From Alphaproteobacteria bacterium (GTDB lineage: Bacteria; Pseudomonadota; Alphaproteobacteria; Bin95), in contig CBDBGH010000003.1 in assembly GCA_965205265.1 (NCBI GenBank), positions 2,560,001-2,624,000 on the forward strand: 64,000 nucleotides of DNA, in the 5' to 3' direction. Below the pieces are notes generated by a model. The model was not told the origin of the DNA. It ran no database searches and saw nothing but the letters and a program-made list of their open reading frames with translations. This document shows, one piece after another, positions 15,543 to 38,178 of the stretch (its first letter is position 1; the number at the start of each line of letters is the position of its first letter). The position numbers and the translations under genes were made by a program.

Positions 15543-16544
15543 TCAGAGCAAACAACAGTTCCGTTTGCGCCACAGCAGGTAGCCGAAGTTCTCGCCCGCG
15601 ACCGGCAATTCGCGCAGGGATTCCCAGAGCACCGAGGACCGCCCCGTGGGGTTGCAGCCGGTAAACGGATCGACGGCCGGCACCGGCTGGGTCATCTGCC
15701 AGCGGTACTGCGACTTCTTCATCACCGGCATCGGATAGCGTCCGCAGAGCGCGCCCGAGCCCATCGTCCCCCAGGCGACCCCGGCCCGGTGCAGCCGGTA
15801 GAGCAAGCGCTGGGAGGCGAGCAGCGAGGCCTGCACCCCGCCGACATGGGCGGCGACGTTGCCGGTGAGCGGATACATCCCGCCCTGGCAGCCCGCGCAC
15901 CAGAACATGGGATCGAGCGGCAGGCCGGCCGAGGAAGCAGCGCAATCGGCGGCGCAGGCCGCCTGGGCAGGGAGGTTGGCGAACAGCGCCGCCTCCGGGT
16001 TGAGCAGGAAGGTCAGCTCGTCGTCGAGCCAGGCCGGGTCGAGCTCCGAGGCCCAGGCGATGTCGAGCCCGCCGCCCTCCAGGCAGCCGAGATCGAGCAG
16101 GACGCCGATCCAGCTCAGGAGCGGATACATGTAGTAGTGGGCATGCCAGACCGAGCCCTTGGCGCCGTCGCCGCCCGCCGCGCCGGTGCGCCCGCGCCCT
16201 GCGGGAAGGCCCGGATCGATGGTGAGGCCGCCGAGGTTGGGGAAGCACCAGGGCGCCCGCGTCGCGTCGACCAGCCGGGCCGGCTCCCAGACCCCGAGCG
16301 AGAGGCCGATGCGGGGGATCGGCGAGCCGCAGAGGCAGATCGGCGAGGACGGGTTCGGCGTGTCGAGCACGCCGGAGACGCTGCCGATCGTGATCGGCCC
16401 GATCGAGATCGGGAACAGGCACTCCCAGCAGACGTCCGAGATCGGGTTGACGAAGCGCCCGGTGCAGGACTGCGCCGAGGCCGGGGCGGCCCACAGCACG
16501 GCCAGCAGCGCCAGCGCGGCCGGAAGGGTTACGTGGCGGATCAT
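15543..16544 (-). CDS. traU: TraU
   Basis: CTGRFVNPISDVCWECLFPISIG, WEPARL, FWCAGCQG, WRKRNCC. Confidence 0.96.
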   Translation of the reverse strand: MIRHVTLPAALALLAVLWAAPASAQSCTGRFVNPISDVCWECLFPISIGPITIGSVSGVLDTPNPSSPICLCGSPIPRIGLSLGVWEPARLVDATRAPWCFPNLGGLTIDPGLPAGRGRTGAAGGDGAKGSVWHAHYYMYPLLSWIGVLLDLGCLEGGGLDIAWASELDPAWLDDELTFLLNPEAALFANLPAQAACAADCAASSAGLPLDPMFWCAGCQGGMYPLTGNVAAHVGGVQASLLASQRLLYRLHRAGVAWGTMGSGALCGRYPMPVMKKSQYRWQMTQPVPAVDPFTGCNPTGRSSVLWESLRELPVAGENFGYLLWRKRNCCLL

Positions 16545-16969
16545 GCCGGCGATTCCGGCGCGCCGCCGCCCGCCTCGGCGTCCGGCGTTTCTTCCGCCTG
16601 GCCCGGACCGCGATCCGGGCTCGCCCGGCGTCCACCCAAGATATTGACCATGCCGTGCCGGCCCGAGACGACGATCTCGGTGACCGCCCTTTCCTTCCCT
16701 TCCCGGTCGGTGAAGCCGCGCGTCGCGATCCGGCCCTCGACCATCACCCGGTCGCCCTTGCGCAGCATCTTTTCGACCGCCGCGACCGTGGGACCGTAGA
16801 CGACGATGCGATGCCATTCGGTCGCCTCGGCCGGGCGGCCGTCCCCGTCCGTCCACTTCTCGGTGGTGGCGAGCGTGAACACCGCCGCCTTGCCGCCGTT
16901 CTTCAGGTCCCGGATCTCGGGATCGCGCCCGGCATGGCCGAGCAGGGTGGCGCGGTTCATGTTCAGCAT
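16541..16969 (-). CDS. ssb: Single-stranded DNA-binding protein
   Basis: NRATLLGHAGRDPEIR, LATTEKW, TEWHRIV, KGDRVMVEGRI OB-fold. Confidence 0.95.
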   Translation of the reverse strand: MLNMNRATLLGHAGRDPEIRDLKNGGKAAVFTLATTEKWTDGDGRPAEATEWHRIVVYGPTVAAVEKMLRKGDRVMVEGRIATRGFTDREGKERAVTEIVVSGRHGMVNILGGRRASPDRGPGQAEETPDAEAGGGAPESPA

Positions 16970-16972
16970 CGT

Positions 16973-17764
16973 TCAGTCCTCCTCTTCGGGGCTTGTCCGC
17001 CCGGCTCCGGGGGAGCCTGCCCCGGCCTCCGAGCCGGGTGGCCAGGCTCCCACCGATCCGGGACCATTCCCCGGATCGGTGTCCCCCGGATCGGTGTCCG
17101 GGGCAGGCGGGGCAGGCCGGTCCTCGACCGGAATCTCCGTAATCCGCAGCCGCGATCCCGTCTGTTCGACCAGACTCGGCGTGAACCCGAGGCCGAAGCG
17201 CGCGGCGAGGCGCCCGCCCTGGTCGAAGAAGAAGGGCCGGCGGTGCCGCCGCATCAGGTCGAGCGGCCGCCCGGCGAGCAGCACGATCTTCGCAGGACGC
17301 CCGCTTTCCTCTTCCCGGGCGAGCGCCCAGGCGATCTCCGCCGCGCGCCGGCCGTCGACGAACAGCAGGTCGCGGGCGAGCGTGGTGCGCTCCAGCGGGT
17401 TGACCCGCGTGCCGGCAGCGGCGATGAGCGCGCCGTCGGCCGTCCGGATATCCCGCGCGACCGTGATGGCCGGATCGAACAGGCGGCTGCGTTCTTCCCT
17501 CGCCGGCGCGATGCCGGCCACCGGGTCCGGTTCTTCCAGCTTCCTCCGGGCATTGGCGCGGGCCTCTCGTTCCAGCCGCGCCAGCTCGCCGGAGCGTTCC
17601 ATTTCGAGAAGGCGCGCCTCGATCTGCGCCAGCAGGTCGGGCTCGGCGACCGGCCAGGTCGCGCCGCGCACACCCAGGTCTTCCGCCGAGACCGGAAGCG
17701 GAGTTGCGGACGCCATCACCGCGCCGAGCGTCGTGGCGAGCAGCAAGGCAGCAGCGCGCTTCAT
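16973..17764 (-). CDS. traW: TraW
   Basis: DLGVRGATWPVAEPDLL, FDPAIT, GTRVNPL, FFDQGGRL. Confidence 0.95.
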   Translation of the reverse strand: MKRAAALLLATTLGAVMASATPLPVSAEDLGVRGATWPVAEPDLLAQIEARLLEMERSGELARLEREARANARRKLEEPDPVAGIAPAREERSRLFDPAITVARDIRTADGALIAAAGTRVNPLERTTLARDLLFVDGRRAAEIAWALAREEESGRPAKIVLLAGRPLDLMRRHRRPFFFDQGGRLAARFGLGFTPSLVEQTGSRLRITEIPVEDRPAPPAPDTDPGDTDPGNGPGSVGAWPPGSEAGAGSPGAGRTSPEEED

Positions 17765-18351
17765 GGTCTTGCCTCCGGCCCCTTGTCGTCGCCGGTGTCT
17801 TCCGGCCCGACCAACGGTCCGTTCAGTCCCAGCCAGGGAATGTCCGGCATGGCGACGGCGCGTCCGAGGATGCGGTCGCGCGGCACCAGCCCGATCTCGG
17901 CGTAGCGGCTGTCATGGCTGTCCGTGTGGTCGCCGTGCAGGTAGAAGTGTCCCGGCGGGACGATCCCGGGCGCGATCGCCGCGAGCGGCCGCCCGTCGAG
18001 CGCATGGGTCTTGGCCCGGCCCACCGGCTCGCCGTCCAGAAACACCGTTCCGTCCGTCCCGACCGCGACCGCCATGCCCGGCACGCCGCGCACTGTCTTC
18101 AGGTAGGGAACCCGGGAACCGACGGCCTCCGGCGGCTCGAACAGCACGCGGTCGCCGGGCTTCGGGTCCTCGCCGAACAGAGGGAAGGCGGCATAGCCCC
18201 AGGACCCGTCCGACCAGGAGGCGTTGACATGCACGCGCGACGCCGCGCCCAGCCAGACGGCCGCCAGCACGACCATGACGGCGAGGCCGATATGCCGGCC
18301 ACGGCGCGAACGGCCTGCCCTCGGTGAGAGTTGCAGCCCCCGCGCGCTCAT
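17761..18351 (-). CDS. trhF: S26 conjugative signal peptidase (TrhF-like, pilin maturation)
   Basis: VNASWS (Ser), YLKTVRGVPG (Lys), SHDSRY...GLV. Confidence 0.85.
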   Translation of the reverse strand: MSARGLQLSPRAGRSRRGRHIGLAVMVVLAAVWLGAASRVHVNASWSDGSWGYAAFPLFGEDPKPGDRVLFEPPEAVGSRVPYLKTVRGVPGMAVAVGTDGTVFLDGEPVGRAKTHALDGRPLAAIAPGIVPPGHFYLHGDHTDSHDSRYAEIGLVPRDRILGRAVAMPDIPWLGLNGPLVGPEDTGDDKGPEARP

Positions 18352-25396: not shown

Positions 25397-25690
25397 TCAG
25401 CCGACGAAGCGCCGGAGGTGGCTCGGCGGCGTCGCCCTGAGCCGCAGCACGAAGTCCGGCAGGAACCAGTAGAGGGCGTAGCGCGCGATGTTGGCCCCGC
25501 CGCCGCGCTTGACCCGGCGCAGCAGCAGCCAGCCGCCGACGCCGGCAACGAGGCCGGGCACGAACTGGTTGGCCGCGAGTCCGAGCAGGGCCGGGCCCAT
25601 CAACGCGGCCGCCTCGTCGACGGTCCAGAACATCCAGCGCTCCGGATCGTCGAGCCGGCGCGGGATGGTGTGGCGGGCGGTGTCGTTCAT
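25397..25690 (-). CDS. traL: TraL
   Basis: IPRRLDDPERWMFWTVDE, YWFLP, TPPSHLRRFVG. Confidence 0.95.
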   Translation of the reverse strand: MNDTARHTIPRRLDDPERWMFWTVDEAAALMGPALLGLAANQFVPGLVAGVGGWLLLRRVKRGGGANIARYALYWFLPDFVLRLRATPPSHLRRFVG

Positions 25691-25707
25691 GGCTGCCGAC
25701 CTTCGGC

Positions 25708-26247
25708 TCAGACGATCGCCGTGCCGACGAGGCCGGTGACGATGCCGGTGCCGGCGCCCGCCGCGATGCCGACGCCGACCGCGCCCATGAGCTGCATCGC
25801 ATTGAAGCGCAGCACCGAGCCGACCAGTGCGGCGCCCACGGCGAGCGCGGCGGCGAGCTGGCCGCCGGTGCCGCCGACGATCCCTTCCACCGTGTCGAGC
25901 GGATCGTCGAACGTGGTGTCGGTGGTCGCGAACGCGGCGTCCGGTCCCGCGAGCAGCAGCGCGACGCCGAGCGCCGCCACCGCCGCGCAGCGCAGCGCGG
26001 GACCGAGGCCATCCCCCGGTCCGGGGCCTGCCCCGGATTCCGGCCCGGGGTCCACGGTCGAGTTGCGCTCGCGCTTCGCCGCCCACTCGTCGAGATGCTC
26101 GCGCCGGTAGCGCACCCGGCCGCCGAAGCGGTTGAACACCGGGCCCTCGCCGGTCACCCGGTAGCGTTTCAGGGTGCGGTGCGACAGCCGCAGATAGCGG
26201 GCCGCCTCGACCGTCGTGAAAAATATCTGTTCGTCGGCCACCGTCAT
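25708..26247 (-). CDS. traA: Fusion of an RdfS/excisionase-like HTH (aa ~1-68) to TraA propilin
   Basis: N-terminal TTVEAARYLRLSHRTLKRYRVTGEGPVFNRFGGRVRY...LDEW...STVDPG; then a signal-like h-region ending AFA; then TTDTTFDD...GG.GGQL with two hydrophobic helices. AAGGAG RBS; immediately upstream of traL. Confidence 0.85.
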   Translation of the reverse strand: MTVADEQIFFTTVEAARYLRLSHRTLKRYRVTGEGPVFNRFGGRVRYRREHLDEWAAKRERNSTVDPGPESGAGPGPGDGLGPALRCAAVAALGVALLLAGPDAAFATTDTTFDDPLDTVEGIVGGTGGQLAAALAVGAALVGSVLRFNAMQLMGAVGVGIAAGAGTGIVTGLVGTAIV

Positions 26248-26313
26248 TCTCCTTCGTCTCCGCCTGCCCCGGACGCCGATCCAGGACGCCGCGCTCTGCG
26301 GCCCGGTCCGCGA

Positions 26314-26370
26314 TTGAAACGGCGCGCCCGGCCCGCCGTAAGGGTCGATTTGCGAGTCGCAAAACCGACC
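26314..26370 (-). promoter_or_regulatory. Candidate activator box and promoter of the rdfS-traA/tra operon
   Basis: GGTCGG-N16-TCGACC (26343-26370) enclosing the perfect palindrome TTTGCGA-N-TCGCAAA, followed on the minus strand by CTTACG-N18-TTCAAT. Confidence 0.5.
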
Positions 26371-26569
26371 TCCCCAGGCGGTGCCTCACGGTGCCCTGCG
26401 GTGCCGGGAGGGCGATCGCCCGAGGACCGGCAGATCGCCCCGGACCGGTTCCGGGGACCGGGACAGGCGCGCCGGCACGCCGGCCGCAATGTTTCGGACG
26501 GGCGCGCGGGCAGCGGATTCGGGAACGGGGGAGCGGTTCGGGACCGCCTCGCGGAAACGCCGGACCGCG

Positions 26570-27372
26570 CTACGTCGCGGAGGGATCCGGCTTGCGCTGA
26601 CGGCGGCGCTTGCGGCGCGGCTCGAGGAACGCCGCGCTGTAGCCGCCGTCCCTCAGCCCCTTCGCCTTCTCGATGCGGCGCCTCGACTTCGAGCGCGGTC
26701 CCCCGTTGGGGTCCCAGGGCTCCACCGCGTCGGCCTCGAGAACGTCCAGCGCAATGTCCCGCTGCGACTTCTCCGCGCCGAGCGCGTCCAGGACCTTCAG
26801 AAGCTCGTCGTGCTCCTTGCCCGGACCCGGCGCCTCCGAGGAGGGGGCGGGCGTCCCGTCACCCGCCACAGGTCCTCGATCCGCCCGACCGCCGCCTCCA
26901 GCGGCAGGCTCAGCCCGAGCTTCGCCATGATCCCGTCGCCGGGGCCGAACGCGCGGCCCGACGGCACCAGGATCTGCAGCAGCGCGTTGCCGAGCTCCGC
27001 CTTGAGAACGAACCGGCCGTCGAGCAGCCTCAGCCCCTCGACCCGCGCTCCTGCTTCCGTCAGAAGCCCCAGCAGCGGCGCCGGGTCGGGCCAGGGGTCC
27101 GGGTCGGGCTCGCCGACGAGCATCGGGATGCCGGACCAGAAGGGCGAGCGCCAGACCTCCGCTTCGGGGTCCTCCCAGGCGAGCAGCGCCCACTCCGCTT
27201 CCGCCCGCAGGTCGGCCTCGGTCTGCACCCGGAGCGGGAACCCCGCATCCTCGAAGCGGGGCGGGGCGGCATGCACCGCCCATGCCTCGCGGTAGTCGGG
27301 GTTGCGCCGCATGTAGGCCCAGGCATGGCCCCCGAGGACCGCGTCCCGGTCCGCGCCCCTGACGCGGCTCAT
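26570..27372 (-). CDS. FseA-like (DUF6499 + DUF2285) transcriptional activator, split by a -1 frameshift near 26820-26860
   Basis: Frame 1: AWAYMRRNPDY...EW.L..EDP...PFW, stop at 26797. The -1 frame carries LLKVLDALGAEKSQRDIALDV...W...RSKSRRRIEKAKGLRDGGY, the DUF2285-type HTH. Confidence 0.75.
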
Positions 27373-27394: not shown

Positions 27395-30300
27395 CTACCA
27401 ACGGGCGGTAAACCCGAAGCCTATCCTGTGCTCGGGCGGGGTGTTGTCGTTGACGCTCTCGTTGCGCAGCGCCTCGACCTTGAACTCGAAGGTCCGCGGA
27501 CCCTGCCGCTCCGGCGTCAGACGCCAGCCGAGCGCGTAGTCGCGCCCCGTGTCCGACAGGCCCAGCGCGACCTCCGGCGTCCCCGTCAGCCGGCCGCCGA
27601 ACGCCGGCACGCCGTAGCCCAGCCGCGCCTCGAAGCGCCGCCGGTCCCAACTATTGTCGTTGGCCGCAAGCCCCGCCAGATCGTCGCGCGCGAGCAGCGC
27701 GTCCACGCCGCCCGCATCGGTCGCCCCCAGGGTCTGGCTCAGCGTCAGCTTCGGCCCGCGCTCCGTGTCCGGCCGCGGGTCCCAGGTCAGCCCGCCCGAG
27801 ACCCCGCGCTCGCTGAAGCCCGAGTCCTCGTGGGTCAGCAGGCCCCGCGCCTTGACCTCGGCCGACAGCCCGCGCTCCGGGTCGGACCACGCCACGCCGC
27901 CGCCGACCTCGGTGCCGAACCCGGTCTCGGCGTCGCCGCCGTCCACCCTGAGCCCGATCTCCGCGCTCGGCGTCAGCGTCGCGCCGCCGCCGACCGCGAA
28001 GGTCCGGCTGCCGTCCAGCACCAGCCGGAGCCGCGTCGCCTCGCCCTCGCTCGCCGCCATGCCCGGCACGGCATCGCTCTCCGTGCCGACCCACATCGCG
28101 TCGGACCGCACGTTGAGCGCGATGCCGTCCTCGCCGTCGAGCAGCCGCCCGGTGACGCCGACCGCGGCCATGCGCATCCGCACGTCGGTCTCCATGGCGC
28201 GCTCGCCCTCGGGCTTCAGCGTGAGCCTGCCCCAGCCCGCGCCGGCGAGGCCCGCCACCGACACCCGTTCGGTCAGGTCGAACTTGGCGTAGGGCCAGAC
28301 CCCGGTCAGCGCGCTCTCGACGTCGCCCTTGCCGGCCGGGCCGCCGTATGTGCCCTCGCCCAGGCTGTGCGAGACCATCACGCCCGCCAGCAGCCGGTCC
28401 CACTCGGCGTCGGCGCCGAGGAAGCCGGTCGTGACCGTGCCGTCCAGGTCGAGCCCGCCGGCCTCGCCCTCGAAGGCGGTGGTCGCGAACCGGCCCCACG
28501 CGGCGAAGCCCGGACCGCCCGCCTCCTTGCGGCCGGAGGCCGCGAGGTGGAACGACGTGCCGAGCAGGAACTGCTCCAGCGTCATGGTCCGCAGCCCGGT
28601 CCCGCCGCCGTGCGGGTCGCTCCCGTGCAGGCCGCGGTCGCCGGTGTACTGCCACCACGGCCGTTCGGCCCCGGCGCCGAGCGCCATTCCCTGCGCCGTG
28701 CCGTCGGACGTCCCGTCCGACGCCGCGCCGCCGGTGACGGCCTGTCCGCCGAGCGTGCCGTGCGAGCCGCCGGTCTCGGCGAACCGGCTGCCGAGCGCGT
28801 CCAGCGCCTGGCTGCCGACGGTGCGGCCCATCCGCACCAGCCACGCCCCCGGCATCGGGTCCGTGTTGGTTATCGTGCCGACCGCGTCGCCGTCGACCTT
28901 GCGCAGGCCGGAGGGGTTCGACAGCACGAGCAGCAGCTCCTCCTCGCCCTCGTCATGCGCGTCGTCCAGCACCGGCACCGACACCGTCTTCTCCGTCTCG
29001 CCCGGCGCGAACAGCAGCGTGCCCGAGGTCGGCGTGTAGTCGTAGCGCGGATGCGCCGTCCGGGCGACGGTCCGGTAGTCCACCGACGCCAGCGCGTCCG
29101 GCGCACGGTCCAGCGTCACCCTAAACGCGAGCACCGCGCCCGGCGCCTCGCGCACCCGCGCATCGGCCACCGACACGCCCGGCAGGGATCCCGGCGCCGC
29201 CTGCGGCTCCCGCGCCTTCTGCGGCTCCGCGAGCTTCTTGCGCAGCCACTTCAGGCCGCCGTTGTTGACCTTCGCCCGCGCCGGACCCCAGCCCTCTTCC
29301 TCCGGGTCGCCCAGGAAGAAGCGCGGCAGCACCGAGTTCGAGACGCCCGCGAGTCCGTCCACCTTGTCGGAGCCCGTCACCGTGCGCACCGTGTACGAGG
29401 CCCACTCCGCGCCGTCGAGCAGCCCGACCGCCGTGTCGTAGCGGCCCGTCGCCGCGGTCCCGTCGTCCGGGTCGTGGTAGATCGTGAACGAGACCGGCTC
29501 GGGCTCCGGCTCCGGTTCCGGCTCGGCGGGGGCCTCGTCGTCGTCGCGCACCGTCACCGCCGCGCTCGACGCCGCGCCCAGGTTGTAGCCGTCGCCGTGG
29601 TCCAGCGTCACCGTCACGCTGCCGTCCGGCTCGTCCGCGTCGTCGCCCGCCGTCGGCACCTCGATCGTCGCGCTCGTGGCGCCCCCGTCGATGGCGAGCG
29701 TCTTCGCGCCCTCATCGTCCGCCGCCACGAACTCGCCGTCCTCCGACACGCCGTAGGCGAGCGTCAGCCCGCCTTCCGGCGCCGCCTCCGAGAGCGTCAC
29801 CGTGAACGACGCCGCCGTGCCCTCGTCCACCGCCGGGCCGGCGGCAAGCGTGACATCCAGCGACCACGGCGAATGGCGCACCCGCACCGGCTCGCGCCCG
29901 TTGTAGTGCCGCCGGTCGAGCGCGTTCACCTCCACCAGCCAGTGCCGCGCCGCGTCGAAGTTCGGGATCTGCAGGCTGCAGCGGTCGTCCGCGCAGGTGC
30001 GGACGTCCACGATCTCGAAGCCCTTGTTCCGCGCGCCCCGCGACTTCCGCTTCGCCAGCCGCTTCGTGCCGCTCGCCCAGGCGACCGTGTAGTCGTCCCG
30101 CACCGACGGCACGCTCCAGGTCACCAGCCCGGTGTCCGAGACCGCCACGTTCTCCGGCACGCCGGTGAGGTTCAGCACCTCGCCCGGCGCCGGCGTGTGC
30201 CGCGCCGCCGCCGCCGGCAGGCCCTTGATCGGCCGCTCCGCATTGTTCACCTCGACGAGGTAGTGGTAGCGGGCGTCGAAGTCCTCGATCCGGGTCTCGC

Positions 30301-33300
30301 AGCGCCCCTCGGAGCACTGGAACTCGTGGACCGTCGCCTGGCCGGTATTCACGAAGCCCAGGTCCATGTACGACGGCGCCACCTCGTCCCAGTTCCATTC
30401 CACCCAGTACTTGATCCGGCCGTCGGGCGCCGTCGCCTTGTCCAGGGTCCAGGTCACCACCCCGGTGTCCGACACCGCGAGGTTGCGCGGCACGCGGTTC
30501 GGATCCCGCGGCGGCAGCGGCACGAATTCCGTCTTGTCGTCGTCGACGACGGTCAGCATGGCCCCCGCGCTCGGGAACCCGCCGACGCTGGCCCGGAAGT
30601 ACACCCTCTCGTCGCCCTCCTCGGCCGTGTCGTTCGTCGGCGTCACGGTGAGGTCGATCGACCCGCTCGCAGCGCCGGCCGGGATGGCGAACTCGAAGGT
30701 GGTCGGACAGGACTTGCCGGCGGACGCAATGCCGAGGTCGGTGCCGTAGGTGGCGGTATCGCCCTCCCGGCCGCAGGCCAGGATCACGTCGGCCGCGGTC
30801 GCCAGCGTCCCGCCGACCAGGGTCGCGGTCGCCGTCACCGTCCGCGCGCCGCCGTCCTCGGCGATGCGCGACGGGCTGAGACTGAGCTCGATGCCGGTGA
30901 CCACGGCCGGCGGCGTGACGGCGGGGCAGTTCTGCGTCGCGGCGACCACCGCCAGCTCGACCTTCTGGCCGTTGGTCCAGGTCAGGCCGGAGGGGTCCCA
31001 GTCGACTCTGCTGGCTGCCCCCGTAAAGGGGTTCCAGCCGGGCGTCTTCGTGAACGCCGTGCCGTCCACGCAGAACTTGTAGCTGCCCGTCGCGCTGCCC
31101 GTCAGATCCCCGTAGGCTATGCTCAGGCCGCTGCCGACGAGAAAGACGCCGGTGAGCGCCCGCGTCGCGCCCTGGTCCGTCATGCTGCTGCTGGTGATCG
31201 AGCCAATGCCCGTGTCAGCACTCCAGCCCCGTTGGAGCGTACCCCCCACCGTCAGCGTTGCCGACCAGACGGGCATGACGGACGCCGCGTCATCGTCGTC
31301 TTCCACCGCCACCGAGGTGCTTGTCGTCGCGCCCAGCGTGTAGCCCGTGCCGGCGTTCAGCGTCACCGTCACGGTGCCGTTGGCCTCGTCGTCCCCGTCG
31401 TCCACCGTGGGGACGTTGTAGGTCCCGGTCGTGGCGCCGCCGGCGATGTCCAGCGTCTTGGCGCCCTCGTTGCCCGAGGCCACGTAGTCGTCGTCCACCC
31501 CCTCCGACACCGTCAGGTCGATGGTGAGGCCGCTCGCCGGCGCCGCGCTCGACAGCGTCACCGTGAAGCTCGCGTCCGTGCCCTCCGTCACCGGAGAGGT
31601 GCCCGCCGCGATGGTGGCGGTCGGCAGCACGCCAGTCAGCGTCCCCGTGATCTCGCTCTGGGCCTGGGGCGCCTCCAACTGGTCGACGGCGCTCACCCGG
31701 ACGTCATACGCCGTATCCGCCGTCAGGCCCGTCAGCTGCACCTCCGTGTCGGGGTCCGGACCCCTGTTGGTCGTCTGGCGGCTGCTGTCGTAGCTCTGCC
31801 CGGCGCTCTTCCACTCGATGATGTAGCTGTCGAAGGTGACGCCGGTCGGCGCGTCCCAGTCCACGTCGAGCTTGGTCGGCTCGCCGTCGACCGCGGCCAC
31901 GGTCAGGTTCGGGATCGCCGGCAGGTCGTTGTCCTGCACCGTCACCGCCGCGCTCGACGGACTGCCCAGGGTGTAGCCCGGCGCCGACAGGAGCGTCACC
32001 GACACGGGGCCGTCCGTCTCGTCGTTGCCGTCGTCCACCGTGGCGACGCTGTAGTCCTTGGTCGTCTCGCCCGCGGCGAAGGACACCGTCTTCACGCCCT
32101 GGTCGGCCGCCGCCACGAAATCGCTGCCCGGCGCGTCCGCCACGCTGATGCTGAAGTTGAGGCCGGCAGCCGGCGCCGCCGTCGTCAGCGTCACCGTGAA
32201 CACCGCCGCCGTCCCCTCCGTCACCGGCGAGGTCTTCGCCGCGATCGTCGCGGAGTTCGCCGCATGCGTCCGCGTTCCCGCGACCTCGCTCCGGGCCGAG
32301 ACGGAATGATCACTGGCGACGACGGTGACCTGAACGTCATACGCGGTGTCGGCCGTCAGGCCCGTGATCTGCGCGCTCGTTTGAGGGTCGCCTGGTCTAG
32401 GGTTAGTTTGGATTTGACGGGTATTGACGTACGTCTGGCCGCCGGTCTTCCACCGGACGACGTAATTCAAGGTATCCGCCACCGCGTCCCACGACACGTC
32501 GAGCTTGTCCGTCGCGCCCATGACCGGGGTGACGACCAGGTTCGGCACCGCCGGCAGCGCCGCCGAGGTGGTGCCCGACGTCGAATCCGACCACGCCCCG
32601 TCGCCCTCGGCGTTCGTCGCCCGCACCTGCACCTGGTAGGACGTGCCCGCATCCAGGCTGCCGATCATCGCCGTCAGGCCCGTCTGGTCCTGCGGGCCGT
32701 CGTCCCAGGTCCCGCTCGTGCCCTCCCGGTAGCGCAGGTCGTAGCCCGTGATCGCCGGGCCGGCGTTCGACGGCGCGGTCCACTCCACGTCCAGGCTCGA
32801 CGACGAACCCGTCGTCGGCCCCACCGTGGGCGCCGCGGGCTTGCCCGGCGCCTCGGTGTCCACGTCCGTCACCGCCACCGTCACGGTCGCCGTGTCGGTC
32901 GCCGTGCCGTCGCTCGCCCGCACCGTCAGGGTGAAGGCGGACGCCGGGTCGGCCGGGTCCGTGAAACTCTCGTAGTTCTCGCCGCTGCCGGTATAGGTGA
33001 TCGCGCCTGTGGATGCGCCGATGGCGAACACGCTGCCGGTGTTGCCCGCCGTGATGCTGTAGGTGATCGAGTCGCCCGTGTCCGCATCCGTCGCCGTCAC
33101 CGTGCCCACCGACACCGCCGTGGTGCTGCCGTCCGCGTTCTCCGCCAGGCTGAAGCTGTAGCTCGCCGCGTCGAACGCGGGCGCGGTGTTGGTCGTCGAC
33201 GAGACCGTGATGTCGAACTCCAGCGTCGCGGTGTCGCCGTCCTCGTCGGTCGCCGTGTAGGTGTAGGTGGTCGCGCTCTGCGCCGCCGTCGGCGTGCCCG

Positions 33301-36300
33301 TGAGCATGCGCGTCCCGGCGTCGAAGCCCAGCCCCGCCGGCGGCGCCGGCGACAGGCTGTAGCGCACCGTCCCGTTGCCGCCCGTCGCCGCGGGCAGCGC
33401 CAGGTCCGATATCACCGAGTTCTGGGTGTAGGTCTGGTCGTCGATCGACACCGAGCTGCCGAACGCGGGCGACGAATTCGCCACCAGCGTCGCCGTCATC
33501 CAGACGTGGTCCGCGGTGTTTTCGGCCTGCAGCGCGTGCCGGAGCGAGGCCGTGTCCCCGGCCGCGGCGCCCGGCTGGGCAGTCACGGTGACCGTCTGGG
33601 CCACGTTCCAGTTCGTCGCGTCGTATTCGAGACGGCTCGGTGACACGCTGACCTTGTCGCTGAGCGTCGTGGACCCCTGGGACTGGAACGCAAAGACAGT
33701 GACATGTTCGTTTGTGTTTCCGCCCCCAGGAGCCCGTTTCAGCTTGACCGTATAGGTGATGGACTTGCCAACCGGCACGCTGAGCGCGGTCTTCGACAGG
33801 ACGATCCCCTGCGCGGCGTCCGCCGTCGACGTCGTGCCCGTCCCGGAGTCCGACCACGAGCTGTCGCCCTCGTCGTTGGTCGCGCGCACCTGCACCTGGT
33901 AGGATGTGCCCGCCGTGAGGCTGGGGATCTTCGCCGTGAGGCCGGTCTGGTCCTGCGGGCCGTTCTCCCAGGTCCCGCTCGTGCCCTCCCGGTAGCGCAG
34001 GTCGTAGCTCGCGATCGCCGGGCCGGCGTTCGACGGCGCCGTCCAGGTCACGTCGAGGCTCGTCGTCGAACTCGCCGTCGGCGTCACCGTCGGCGCGGCC
34101 GGCTTGCCCGGCGCCTCGGTGTTGTCGTCTGTCACCGCCACCGTCACGGTCGCCGTGTCGGTCGCCGTGCCGTCGCTCGCCTGCACCGTCAGGGTGAAGG
34201 CCGAGGCCGGGTCGGCCGGGTCGGTGAAGCTCTCGTAGTTCTCGCCGCTGCCGGTATAGGTGATCGCGCCGGTGGAGGAGATCGCGAACACGCTGCCCGT
34301 GTTGCCCGCGGTGATGCTGTAGCTCACCGTGTCGCCGGTGTCGGCATCGGTCGCCGATACCGTGCCCACCGACACCGCGTTCGTGCTGCCGTCCGCGTTC
34401 TCCGCCAGGGTGAAGCTGTAGCTCGCCGAACCGAACGCGGGCGCCCGGTTCGACGGCGCCGCCACCGCGATGGTGAAGGTCAGCTCGGCCTTGTCGCCGT
34501 GGCTGTCCGTCGCCCGCCAGATGTAGCTCACCGCCGACTGCGTCGCCGTCGGCGTGCCGGTGATCTTGCGGTTCGTCGAGTCGTAGCTCAGCCCCGCCGG
34601 CAGCGTCCCCACCAGCGCATACTCCACCGTGCCGTCGCCGCCCGACGCCGTCGGCAGCGTCAGCTCCGCGATCTGCGCGTTCTGCGTATAGGACTGGTCG
34701 TCGATGGTGCTCCCGCCGAATGACGGCGCCGTCCCCTCGATGACCGTGATGCTGAAACTCACCGTCGCCTTCTCGCGGTCGGTGTCCTCGGCCTGCCAGG
34801 TTTCGCTCGTCGCCACCTGCCGCGCCGTCGGCGTGCCCTTCAGCGTGTAGGTGCCGCCCGACCGCTCGACCGTCAGCCCGGTCGGCAGCGGCAGCGTCGA
34901 GATGGCGTGACTGAGCGGCGCGTTGCCGCCCGTCGCCAGGGGCAGCGTCACCGGCGTCATCATGGAATCCTTGGTCAGCACCAGGTCGTCGATGCCCGTG
35001 CCGAAGGTCGGCGTCGCGTTCGCCACCACCTCCAGCGAGAAGGTCAGCTCGGCCTTGTCGCCGTTGTTGTCGGTCGCCACCAGCGTGTAGGTCGAGGCAG
35101 ACTTCACCGCCGTCGGCGTGCCCACCACCCAGACGTTGCTGTTCTGGAACTGCAGGCCGGTCGGCAGGGTTTCCTTGACGCTGTAGGTCACCGGGCTGTC
35201 GCCGCCGGTCGCCAGGGGGAAGAAGGTCGACCGGTTGTACTTGTTGACCGCGAACACGAGGTCCGGGATCGACGCCCCGTCCGGGAAGGACGGCACCGCG
35301 TTGGCGGTCACCGCGATGGTGAAGGTCAGCGTGTCGGAATCCGGGTTGGTCGCGTCGCTGTCCGTCACCTTGTAGGTGTAGGTCGTGGCGTTCTGCGTCG
35401 TCGTCGGCTTGCCGGTGAGCTTGCGGGTCGCGGGATTGAAGCTCAGGCCCGCCGGCGGGTTCGGGGAGATGCTGTAGATCAGCGCGCCGTCGCCGCCGGT
35501 CGCCGCCGGCAGCGTCAGGTCCACCGCGCGGAGTTGCGGAAAGGACTGGGCCGCAACGGTCTCGGAGCCGAAGTCCGGCACCAGGTCGGTCACGCCGTCG
35601 TCATCGGTCAATGTCAGGGCGGCGCACACAAACTGCGTGTTGGCCACGCCATTGAAATTACCAATGTCGCACTTCCGCGTGAGCAGTCCGGAATTCGACA
35701 CGTCACTCGGATACGCATGCACCACGAGCGTTTTGTTCACCCCGACACGGTCGTTGTTGCGCGCCGTGATCGTCACCGTGCCGGTGCTCGTGGTCGCGCC
35801 CGCCGCGATCGTCAGCGTCTTGTTCGTGCTGAAGGAGAAATCCGTGCCTTCGACCAGCTCAGTCCCCGCATGGTCTGGATCGGAAGCGGCCTTGACGGTT
35901 ATCCGGACTTCCCGGGACACCGCAGCGCTGAGCGATGCAGTGACCGTGGCCGAGCCGCCGTTCTCGGAGATCGACGATGAACTCAACGCCAGCGTCAGGG
36001 TCGGCCGGGTCCCCGACACCGCGATGGTGAAGGTCAGCTCGTCCGAGTCCGGATCGCTGGCATCGCTGTCCGTCACCTTCCAGGTGTAGGTCACCGCCGA
36101 CTGCGCCTCCGTCGGCGTGCCGGTGATCTGCCGGGTGTTGGCGTTGTAGCTCAGCCCCGCCGGCAGCGTCCCCACCAGCTCGTAGTTCAATGCACCGTCG
36201 CCGCCCGTCGCCGCCGGCAGGGTCAGCGGCGTGATCTGCGTGTTCCGGGTGTAGGACTGGTTGGAGATGGTGTTGGTGCCGAACGTCGGCACTTCGTCGA

Positions 36301-38178
36301 TCACCGTCCCCTTCGCCGTGCCGTTGATGCGAAGCTTGAAGGAATTGGTCCACGTCAACCACGTTCCGGACGTCGCGCCCCGGTTTCGATACAGGTTGCC
36401 GTCGCCGAGGCTCCAGCCAGCCAAACCGGTCTCGGCGTCGCTCGCGGTGACATCTACGCCCAAAATTCCGGTGTCGATGTCAACAACCACAAAGTAGGGG
36501 GTGTTCGCGGTCAGATCGAGGCCCGGGTGGGTGTAGGTGCGCGCGCCTGCCGTCGACGACCCCGTCAACGTGCCCAACACGGCACCCGGCTGATCTCCCG
36601 TCGCGCTGTTGACTGTTACGGTAACGCTGGTGGCATTGGAGAACCCGGCGAATTCGACGCTGGTCAGCCTGTAGCCGTCCGGGTTGCTGCCGGTGGTGAA
36701 TGCCAGAGCCTGATCGAATTGTGACAGATTAGCCGCGACATTGGCATTGGTCTCATCATGGTTGCTGACCAGCACGGAGTCGCTTGCGCCACTCGGCCCG
36801 GAGAAGGTTTGCGGCCCGGAGAAGACTTGCGGCGCGGCGCGGAATTGTGGCCTGTCGTCGTCTCTCACCGTCACCGACGCGCGCTTTGCCGTGCCGAGCG
36901 TGTAGCCGGTGCCGCCGGCCAGCGTCACCGTCACGCTGCCGTCGGGCTCGTCGTCCCCGTCGCCCGTCGTGACGACACGGTAGGTCCCGGTCGTGGCGCC
37001 CCCGGCGATGGCGAGCGTCTTCGCACCCTCGTCGGCCGAGGCCACGAAATCGCCGTTGGCGGACTCGCTCACGGTGAGGTTCACCGTCAGACCGGCGGCC
37101 GGCGCCACACTCGACAGCGTCACCGTGAACTGCGCCGCCGTCCCCTCCGTCACCGGGGAGGTCCCGGCCGCGATGGTGGCGGCCGGCTTGCCCGGCGCGT
37201 CGTCGTCCACGTCGGTCACGCCCACCGTCACGGTCGCCTCGGTGTAGGCCGCGCCGTCGCTCGCCCGCACGCGCAGGCTGTAGGCCCGCGCCGGGGTCGC
37301 GAAGCTCTCGAAATCCTCGCCGCGCCCGCGGTAGGTGATCGCCCCGCTCGAGGAGATGTCGAACACGTTGCCCGTGTTCCCGGACTCGATGCTGTAGGCG
37401 AGCGTGTCGCCGGCGTCCGCATCCGTCGCCGAGACCGTGCCCACCGACACCGGCGTCGCGCTGCCGTCCGCATTCTCCGCCAGCGTGAAGCGGTAGCTCG
37501 CTGCGCCGAAGGCGGGCGCGCTGTTCGGCGCGGACGCCGCCGCGCCGGTCCGCGTCCCGGTGACCTCGCCGTGGGCCAGCTTCCAGTAGCCGCTGTCGAA
37601 CACCCGGACCTGGACGTCGTACACGGTGTCGGGATCGAGGCCGTTGATCCGCGCGCTCGTCGGATGCCTGCCTTCCTCGACCGTGACGACGACGCCGCGG
37701 CGATGGTGGTAGGCCTGGCTGCCGGTCTTGTACCAGACGGAATAGATGAAGGCGTCGTCGACCTCGTCCCAGGTGACGTCGAGCCTGTCTCCGGAGCCCG
37801 GGACCGCGCTCACCGTCAGGTTCGGCACCGCCGGAACGTCCCGGGCCTGCGCGGGAAGTGCGGCGAGCGCACCCAGCGACAGGAGGAGGAAGGCCCCGGC
37901 GAGGGCGCGCCGGGCTCCGGACCGGAGCCCGGCGAAGACGGGAAGGAGGAAGCGGGAAGCGGGCCCGCCGCGCGGCGGTCGGGACGAACCCGAAAGGGCT
38001 AGGTCAGAGGAGCAGTCCCGGCGTGGGGACGGATGAAGGCGAGAGGCAAGACACAGGAGCCCGCTCGGCGCTCGGCGCTCGGCGCTCGGCGCTCGGCGCT
38101 CGGCGCTAAATTATATACGAGGCAACGAAACACCGATGTCAAGCTCTTGTCCGGAAAACGCAAACGCTCCATGACCAT
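27395..38178 (-). CDS. Giant repeat adhesin/autotransporter-like protein (FN3, cadherin, Calx-beta, putative Ig repeats, C-terminal beta-barrel); upstream ATG currently out of frame
   Basis: 3477-aa ORF from GTG 37828. The frame stays open upstream to 38110 and encodes signal peptide RRALAGAFLLLSLGALAALPAQA. Ends in barrel-type GFGFTARW. ATG 38178/38172 is out of frame across the heptamer tract. Confidence 0.88.
32590..34445 (-). repeat. Near-identical internal duplication of a cadherin+FN3 module (~33855-34445 and ~32590-33185)
   Basis: Both copies encode ENADGST.AVSVGTV...ITYTGSGENYESFTDPADPASAFTLTV...EAPGKPAAPTV...YDLRYREGTSGTW with long identical DNA runs; a third cadherin copy lies at ~37190-37520. 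Confidence 0.9.
38063..38107. repeat. Heptanucleotide simple sequence repeat (GCTCGGC)6 + GCT
   Basis: Read directly: six perfect units at 38063-38104. Confidence 0.97.
38110..38142 (-). promoter_or_regulatory. Possible sigma70-like promoter upstream of the repeat tract
   Basis: Minus strand TTGACA...TATATAAT, but spacing is 19-21 nt, which is non-optimal. Confidence 0.35.

Follow-up and report, generated by a model that had tools for sequence, protein, structure and literature searches.

The F-plasmid pilus subunit TraA is made as a propilin with a 51-amino-acid (aa) leader, and its maturation involves cleavage by LepB together with TraQ and TraX. The gene directly ahead of traA belongs to the same operon and encodes TraY, a small DNA-binding protein that acts at the origin of transfer (oriT) and at the tra promoter. 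In integrative and conjugative elements (ICEs) controlled by FseA, the protein RdfS serves both as recombination directionality factor and as a regulator of tra genes. Here, we describe a locus at which an RdfS-like protein and an F-type propilin appear to be one polypeptide, encoded by an open reading frame (ORF) of 179 aa on the minus strand (25708..26247) of a 64-kb window from an alphaproteobacterial genome (GCA_965205265.1, contig CBDBGH010000003.1, positions 2,560,001 to 2,624,000); the window is the whole stretch of DNA that was analysed, and coordinates refer to it. We put the probability at about 60% that this hybrid is a real in-frame fusion of an RdfS-family winged helix-turn-helix (HTH) domain with an F-type propilin, kept over evolution, whose leader would be processed at the membrane and tethered there. 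The families of both halves are known, and the pair is common as two split genes; what appears new, judging from the literature searched, is a regulator placed in frame inside a propilin leader.

A study of RdfS (PMC11963761) reports that rdfS is the first gene of the conjugation operon and represses its own promoter, that RdfS-type proteins control excision and cure the element when overexpressed, and that RdfS works on DNA as an oligomeric filament. In the same study, RdfS remained able to support excision and conjugation without its C-terminal 25 residues, which are disordered, and this makes an extension at the C-terminus of an RdfS-like HTH plausible. A second study (PMC10359603) describes fseA genes with a +1 frameshift and an AWEFLRRN motif, and reports that FseA overexpression has a bacteriostatic effect by inducing the rdfS promoter.

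An earlier note on this DNA, made from its letters, had read here a single 179-aa ORF with a good ribosome-binding site, placed at the traA position and carrying an RdfS-like HTH within its propilin leader. The ORF is present as claimed and holds an HTH_17 domain, a linker, a hydrophobic helix, the motif A-F-A and a pilin in one frame. The claim about the ribosome-binding site stood in part: a Shine-Dalgarno sequence, AAGGAG, is present at 26249..26254, but its spacing suits GTG 26241 (7 nt) and not ATG 26247, from which it is separated by 1 nt only. GTG 26241 is also the sole start of the two that is kept in 6/6 aligned loci, where the stretch ACGAAGGAG...ACGGTG is identical. Because of this spacing and conservation, the true start is probably GTG 26241, with a product of 177 aa; residues are nevertheless counted here from ATG 26247, and all features of the fused gene are on the minus strand. 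The winged HTH spans residues 9-62 (26062..26223) and is followed by a Gly/Pro-rich linker, residues ~63-84 (25996..26061), and by a signal-peptide-like leader end, residues 85-107 (25927..25995). Within the latter, the hydrophobic helix (84-99 from the AlphaFold model and the sequence) has Arg86 before it and G-P-D-A-A-F-A after it, leading to the predicted cleavage site; A107 is invariant. The predicted mature pilin of 72 aa (TTDTTF...GTAIV, residues 108-179; 25711..25926) has two hydrophobic segments that flank RFNAMQ.

Sequence and fold both identified the N-terminal part as an RdfS-family winged HTH. Residues 9-59 matched Pfam HTH_17 (PF12728) over model positions 1-50 of 51 (E 4.1e-12, 46.6 bits relative to a cut-off of 27), and the NCBIfam model TIGR01764 'excise' gave a weak match under its cut-off (E 4e-5, 23.8 bits, cut-off 28.8). 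The best sequence match in the PDB was RdfS itself (8DGL, E 4.4e-10, residues 9-70). In an AlphaFold model of the fused protein, built on 45 fused homologues, the HTH was predicted with a confidence score (pLDDT) of ~90, and the linker was of low confidence or disordered (pLDDT <50). RdfS was again the top PDB match when the predicted HTH was searched with Foldseek, with a root-mean-square deviation of 1.3 A over 51 columns, 45% identity and a TM-score (target) of 0.71-0.73.

The C-terminal part lies where a traA gene would be expected. The fused gene heads a series that starts with traL (25397..25690, minus strand) and continues with traE, traK, traB, traV and traC down to 19395, identified by profile matches (TraV by position only), and the window holds a complete F-type type IV secretion system (T4SS) set: TraL, E, K, B, V, C, TrbI, an S26 peptidase, TraW, the single-stranded DNA-binding protein SSB, TraU, TrbC, TraN, H, G, TraD and a TrwC-type relaxase. 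Pilin hidden Markov models (HMMs) matched weakly: NF041281 TraA_gammapb aligned residues 107-176 with positions 4-73 of 75 (E 0.0079, 16.2 bits relative to a cut-off of 50), and the TrbC/VirB2 model PF04956 matched the pilin part at E 0.063. Stand-alone homologues of 100-130 aa contain the same mature part. An AlphaFold model of the pilin alone (mean pLDDT 69) returned 0 PDB fold matches by Foldseek, which is uninformative for a small helical protein, and the ESM Atlas gave no usable match.

The tandem repeat (CGCTG)2 at 25988..25997, within codons L85-R86-C87-A88, and an out-of-frame ATG at 26012 had been flagged in the earlier note as possible traces of a frameshift. Both are present in the sequence, but the caveat was not supported. 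Contigs of the public runs X1 and X3 cover 25484-26600 and 25735-26600 with 0 differences and 0 gaps, and leave the junction at 25980-26060 unchanged; the two runs share one organism label and may derive from the source organism itself, and so are not independent support. Runs X4 and X5 cover the stretch only in pieces, and no conclusion was based on their uncovered parts. Among fused homologues, the motif 'ALRCAAV' across the repeat is common to the proteins P0002, P0003, P0032 and P0039, the L-R-C-A-A codons through it are also kept in the DNA of loci L051 and L057, and the ATG at 26012 is missing from the other fused loci. Because these codons recur in L051, L057 and many fused proteins, the frame seen here is the family's frame, and the repeat is, on this comparison, not a recent duplication. 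A frameshift or assembly artefact at (CGCTG)2 was therefore rejected. The wider suspicion of an assembly or sequencing error in this genome could point to the GC-rich, repeat-like region with a 5-nt tandem repeat right at the site, but the contigs of the two runs (maybe from the same source organism) match exactly over 25735-26600, and other samples supply fused loci and proteins that are independent and keep the same frame; we consider its probability negligible.

The architecture recurs widely. A search of 5.8 billion proteins gave 975 at E <= 0.001 among 8000 scored candidates, and the best 120 were analysed: 61 carry HTH and pilin in one ORF (the window's protein included), 55 carry the pilin only, and 4 neither. 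Full-length homologues with the same two domains, which the earlier note had proposed to look for, are thus numerous, and by this sequence count the fused architecture is far beyond chance. The 61 fused proteins have leaders of 91-137 aa that are always in frame, with linkers of varying length; 59/61 have AxA at -3/-1, and 48/61 contain no Met from the HTH to 15 aa before the cleavage site. At the DNA level, 6/57 pilin-holding loci are fused, namely the window, L043, L045 (on a 463-kb contig of a metagenome-assembled genome, MAG), L051, L057 and L058; a scan of genome contigs with window residues 1-110 alone gave no confirmed relative, and with a homologue alignment it gave 6 loci. The NCBI name of the fused protein is helix-turn-helix domain-containing protein only. 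Like the earlier note, we found no described case of an in-frame HTH-propilin fusion in the searched literature, which did not cover the supplementary lists of RdfS/FseA homologues (PMC11963761, PMC10359603) that could mention one.

Some further proteins and loci were set apart. Additional 'fused' representatives at 50% clustering (P0130, P0132, P0134, P0139, P0143) were ORFs in the pilin frame that cross the HTH gene out of its own frame, and they were not counted. P0241 (358 aa; 36% identity, residues 5-165) reads as an extra N-terminal domain followed by HTH and pilin-like parts, and may be a distant, separate fusion or a run-through ORF. P0140, P0156, P0155, P0163, P0181 and P0183 contain 2-3 tandem RdfS-like HTH_17 domains with 'STSDPG'-type linkers. 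Loci L043 and L044 lie in MAGs labelled Vicinamibacteria and Chloroflexota, which probably reflects a mis-binned mobile element and not presence across phyla.

Comparison with split relatives suggests how the fusion arose. In these (L002-L042, L050-L056), HTH and pilin are two ORFs in different frames; at 34/38 distinct split loci the stop of the HTH gene and the start of the pilin gene overlap within (A/G)TGA, with GGAG upstream, and 3 more have TGATG. Fused and split loci share an HTH of up to 79% identity, a mature pilin of 90-99% identity, the same FseA-like gene, the promoter blocks and the downstream tra genes; they differ in that split pairs join two frames through (A/G)TGA and give the pilin its own Shine-Dalgarno sequence and start, a stretch that the fused clade has lost by deletion. 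L050, L053 and L054 are the closest split relatives (HTH identity 76-79%) and have GAGGGAG 7 nt ahead of the pilin ATG; measured against these three, the fused loci lack the HTH tail and its stop, the Shine-Dalgarno sequence, the ATG and the residues with which the leader begins. Homology links the fused linker to the N-terminal part of the leaders that stand-alone pilins carry ('...PGSGSGA.ADRAGGALR...' relative to '...DPGSGSEAGDCSGDRPGPALR...'). These alignments point to an origin from translationally coupled rdfS-like and pilin genes with an (A/G)TGA overlap, the usual arrangement of this element family; a deletion would then have taken out the HTH stop together with the Shine-Dalgarno sequence, the start codon and the first leader residues of the pilin. 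In a poorly resolved HTH tree (60 columns), the well-supported branches require at least 4 switches of state, hence at least 4 origins; in one clade 44 of 56 rows are fused, and the separate fused groups P0046-P0054 and P0032/39/41 also differ in their junctions. The earlier note had held that separate rdfS and traA ORFs in close homologues would speak against a fusion: most relatives are indeed split, but a whole clade is stably fused.

Ribosomes that start at the HTH meet no stop until the end of the pilin, and, judging from frames and starts, the hybrid is the sole evident source of pilin in the fused clade and most likely the one propilin that functions there. Several observations weigh against a working, maintained fusion, and the first of them concerns this point: 5/61 fused proteins retain a Met upstream of the hydrophobic region, from which the pilin might be translated separately, leaving the long ORF as a read-through by-product. 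An internal, possibly non-canonical start would also find candidates in the window itself, where initiation at the in-frame GTG of V65 would leave a leader of 43 aa, resembling those of stand-alone pilins, and where L85 is encoded by CTG. A conserved internal start codon was sought in the fused loci and not found, and none of the candidates in 5 fused DNA loci has a Shine-Dalgarno sequence. L057 has no in-frame ATG, GTG or TTG between HTH and mature pilin, and L045 offers only a GTG, which at 13 aa ahead of the cleavage site would be useless. V65 is unconserved (STSD in L045; GTC in L051 and L057), the codon of Leu85 is CTG, CTG, CTT, TTG and CTT across five loci, and HTH-initiated ribosomes must in any case read through. 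We give separate translation of the pilin a slim chance.

Rarity in species-representative genomes, and in general outside metagenomes, also counts against the fusion. Only 1/35 places among 37 genomes of the order is fused, the other 34 being split, and the same is true of 1/15 places among 401 genomes sampled from the class, where the other 14 are split. In a plasmid collection searched with tblastn, 0/171 matching records cover >=80% of the query, the matches being to the HTH part only at <=52% identity, a result that is no evidence of absence because the BLAST low-complexity filter may hide the Gly/Ala-rich pilin. The fused database proteins P0010, P0021, P0057 and P0062 look defective or error-ridden, P0062 being without a hydrophobic leader, and the pilin family call draws on synteny and sub-threshold HMM matches, with no fold match. 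The scarcity of the fused form among representative genomes and the broken appearance of P0021, P0057 and P0062 could suggest decay, with the fused gene as the mark of an element that has lost transfer and whose pilin locus is pseudogenised. Against this stand the low ratios of nonsynonymous to synonymous substitution rates (dN/dS) of the mature pilin in fused locus pairs, 0.07-0.30 at dS 0.28-0.42, and the integrity of the neighbouring genes: TraL, TraE and TraK are full-length in L043, L045 and L057, as is TraB as far as each locus extends, even though TraK is only 64-72% identical, and T4SS, relaxase and coupling protein of the window are complete. Decay of the element is thus very improbable.

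Whether the HTH is still used bears on a further alternative, a neutral or tolerated fusion, in which the deletion joined two coupled genes, the pilin is processed normally, and the HTH leader is degraded or works as before without any coupling having been selected; RdfS-type function might then be reduced or supplied elsewhere. The ancestral genes were already tightly coupled 1:1 in translation, so that fusing them would change little, and several origins are what an easy mutational step in a high-GC open frame would produce. The HTH dN/dS, estimated by the NG86 method, is also raised in fused pairs: 0.26-1.67 in 10 pairs, with bin medians of 0.73-1.15, relative to 0.33-0.46 in split pairs of like dN. 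This weighs against the fusion as a maintained regulator and could mean relaxed constraint; the high values arise because the HTH dS is unusually low (0.08-0.21), and they come from few, non-independent pairs, with NG86 noisy on 54-58 codons at a third-position GC content near 90%, for which reason we put little weight on them. HTH dS in the same locus pairs (window, L043, L045, L051 and L057) is 0.08-0.23, about half the pilin dS of 0.28-0.42, for which recombination or a constraint on the mRNA near the start are candidate causes. A tandem HTH duplication is seen at L057:~300-930 and L058:~1750-2380, where an RdfS-like gene standing on its own runs up to the start of the fused one, and L051 retains a remnant of this duplication; the extra free HTH in L057 and L058 hints that the fused HTH may not give all RdfS function, again a point against.

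Other evidence argues against a neutral fusion. The clade with 44 fused of 56 rows is deeply diverged, and its frame has been kept through many linker-length variants. In 42 distinct fused sequences of the fused clade (clade A), 23/54 HTH positions are invariant, including all those that do not vary among 27 split HTHs, and the entropy profiles of fused and split HTHs are correlated (Spearman 0.50, p 1e-4). HTH divergence is not accelerated either: relative to TraL+TraE, the HTH protein distance is 0.17-0.33 in fused pairs, which is not larger than the split medians of 0.32-0.35. No other RdfS-family copy was found in the window's element with this query. Purifying selection still acts on the AxA site, on the HTH core and, strongly, on the mature pilin, and we regard the neutral fusion as possible but unlikely.

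If the in-frame fusion is a working propilin, its predicted topology suggests the following course. The basic HTH and the linker would stay in the cytoplasm, and the hydrophobic segment of the leader would insert N-in/C-out. An S26 peptidase, either the host LepB or the element's TraF/TrhF-like enzyme, would cut after A-F-A, freeing the 72-aa pilin into the membrane pool and leaving an HTH-linker-anchor piece of ~105 aa tethered to the membrane. This piece could act on DNA in place, or be freed or destroyed by signal-peptide clearance of the RseP/SppA type. HTH activity would in this way be produced in a 1:1 ratio to pilin and depend on insertion of the pilin into the membrane. Release or tethering of the HTH upon pilin processing fits the model's topology; we infer cleavage, topology and HTH fate from such predictions, which counts against the fuller reading, as does the possibility that membrane tethering might hinder the formation of an RdfS-type filament.

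Signal peptides with a second function have a precedent in the enterococcal pheromones, conjugation signals which derive from the signal peptides of lipoproteins. RseP eliminates signal peptides from the membrane (PMC8144685), and a homologue of this M50/RseP type is present in the host genome. As in the RseA/RseP and FecR/RseP systems (PMC8144685), a cytoplasmic regulator would here be held by one hydrophobic segment, with a cut on the periplasmic side followed by intramembrane clearance; unlike in those systems, a structural pilus subunit would supply the tether in the form of its signal peptide, and ordinary leader removal would take the place of the 'site-1' cut. A stronger version holds that the leader itself is the RdfS-type regulator of the element, with S26 cleavage as 'site-1' and RseP/SppA-type clearance as 'site-2' freeing or destroying a DNA-binding protein, so that excision and tra autorepression would be metered by membrane-inserted pilin. 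We consider this version doubtful; if true, it would be a regulated-proteolysis circuit made from a structural pilus subunit.

The surroundings of the gene agree with an FseA link. Ahead of it lies an intergenic region (26255..26569, minus strand), presumed to contain an FseA-dependent promoter, in which aligned blocks are conserved in fused and split loci. A scan of 25600-26800 for sigma-70 promoters and terminators found nothing, and an FseA-dependent promoter need not match the sigma-70 consensus. Next comes an FseA-like activator gene in two overlapping frames (26570..27372, minus strand): ORF 26797-27372 has in its N-terminal part the motif AWAYMRRN, resembling AWEFLRRN, and the frame 26570-27283 matches RovC_DNA-bd/DUF2285 (PF10074, E 6.7e-7). 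This is likely a gene with a +1 programmed frameshift, since motif and DUF2285 domain fit the description of such fseA genes (PMC10359603). Its conservation ahead of the HTH extends to fused and split loci alike; among the other fused ones it was found in L043, L045 and L058, not L057.

A candidate propilin peptidase, the TraF/TrhF-like S26 signal-peptidase-like protein, is encoded within the cluster (17761..18351, minus strand; Peptidase_S26 E 6.8e-18). The genome has three pilin loci of this family, each with its own S26 (TraF/TrhF-like) gene, at 17761-18351 of the window and at G000:C3:3271356-3271676 and 4718262-4718579, and additionally a housekeeping LepB at C3:3022104. Same-genus genomes G010 and G016 have up to 9 and 7 places of the pilin family (E <= 1e-30), several of them identical. 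There are 58 tyrosine-recombinase matches in the window's own genome, with 0 within the window and the nearest ~12 kb outside it; this genome and those of its genus are heavily loaded with mobile elements. A tRNA search of C3:2.50-2.66 Mb gave two doubtful calls only, and no element borders were found. Other genes on the minus strand include the SSB gene inside the tra cluster (16541-16969), an HTH_36/RP-C-like (replication-protein-like) gene beyond the relaxase (822-1337) and an ORF of 3477 aa with many repeated modules (27395-37828), which ends 23 nt ahead of the FseA-like gene.

The fusion matters in several ways. Its pilin is hidden in a 'helix-turn-helix domain-containing protein', so these T4SS seem pilin-less in annotation. 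At ~105 aa, a leader that includes a highly basic, folded DNA-binding domain would far exceed in size any cargo known on a conjugative propilin leader, and it offers a natural test of the tolerance of pilin insertion and leader peptidases. An RdfS-type protein made 1:1 with pilin and anchored in the membrane could be limited, localised or timed in its activity. Closely related split and fused alleles exist, which makes the question directly testable by allele swaps.

Compared with RdfS of the Mesorhizobium element ICEMlSymR7A, the HTH described here has the same HTH_17 winged-helix fold (45% identity over 51 columns), is likewise encoded by the first gene of a conjugation operon after an FseA-type (DUF6499/DUF2285, two-frame) activator gene, and has a disordered Gly/Asp/Pro tail behind an 'STxD' motif. 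RdfS, however, is a free protein of 89 aa, followed by traF-msi107 of another T4SS type, whereas the tail here continues into a propilin; the HTH described here, with just 8 residues ahead of beta1, also lacks the alpha1 helix found at the N-terminus of the ICESym RdfS. Like F-plasmid TraA, the hybrid is encoded directly upstream of traL-traE-traK-traB-traV-traC and has a mature subunit of ~70 aa with two hydrophobic segments behind an unusually long leader ending in AxA. It differs from TraA in that the leader is ~105 aa and would hold a folded DNA-binding domain, in that TraA/TrbC HMM matches fall below threshold, and in that the cluster has its own S26 peptidase, as do H-type and P-type systems. 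Finally, the position of a small DNA-binding function immediately ahead of traA recalls TraY of F, although TraY has a ribbon-helix-helix fold, is a separate protein and is non-homologous to the HTH found here.

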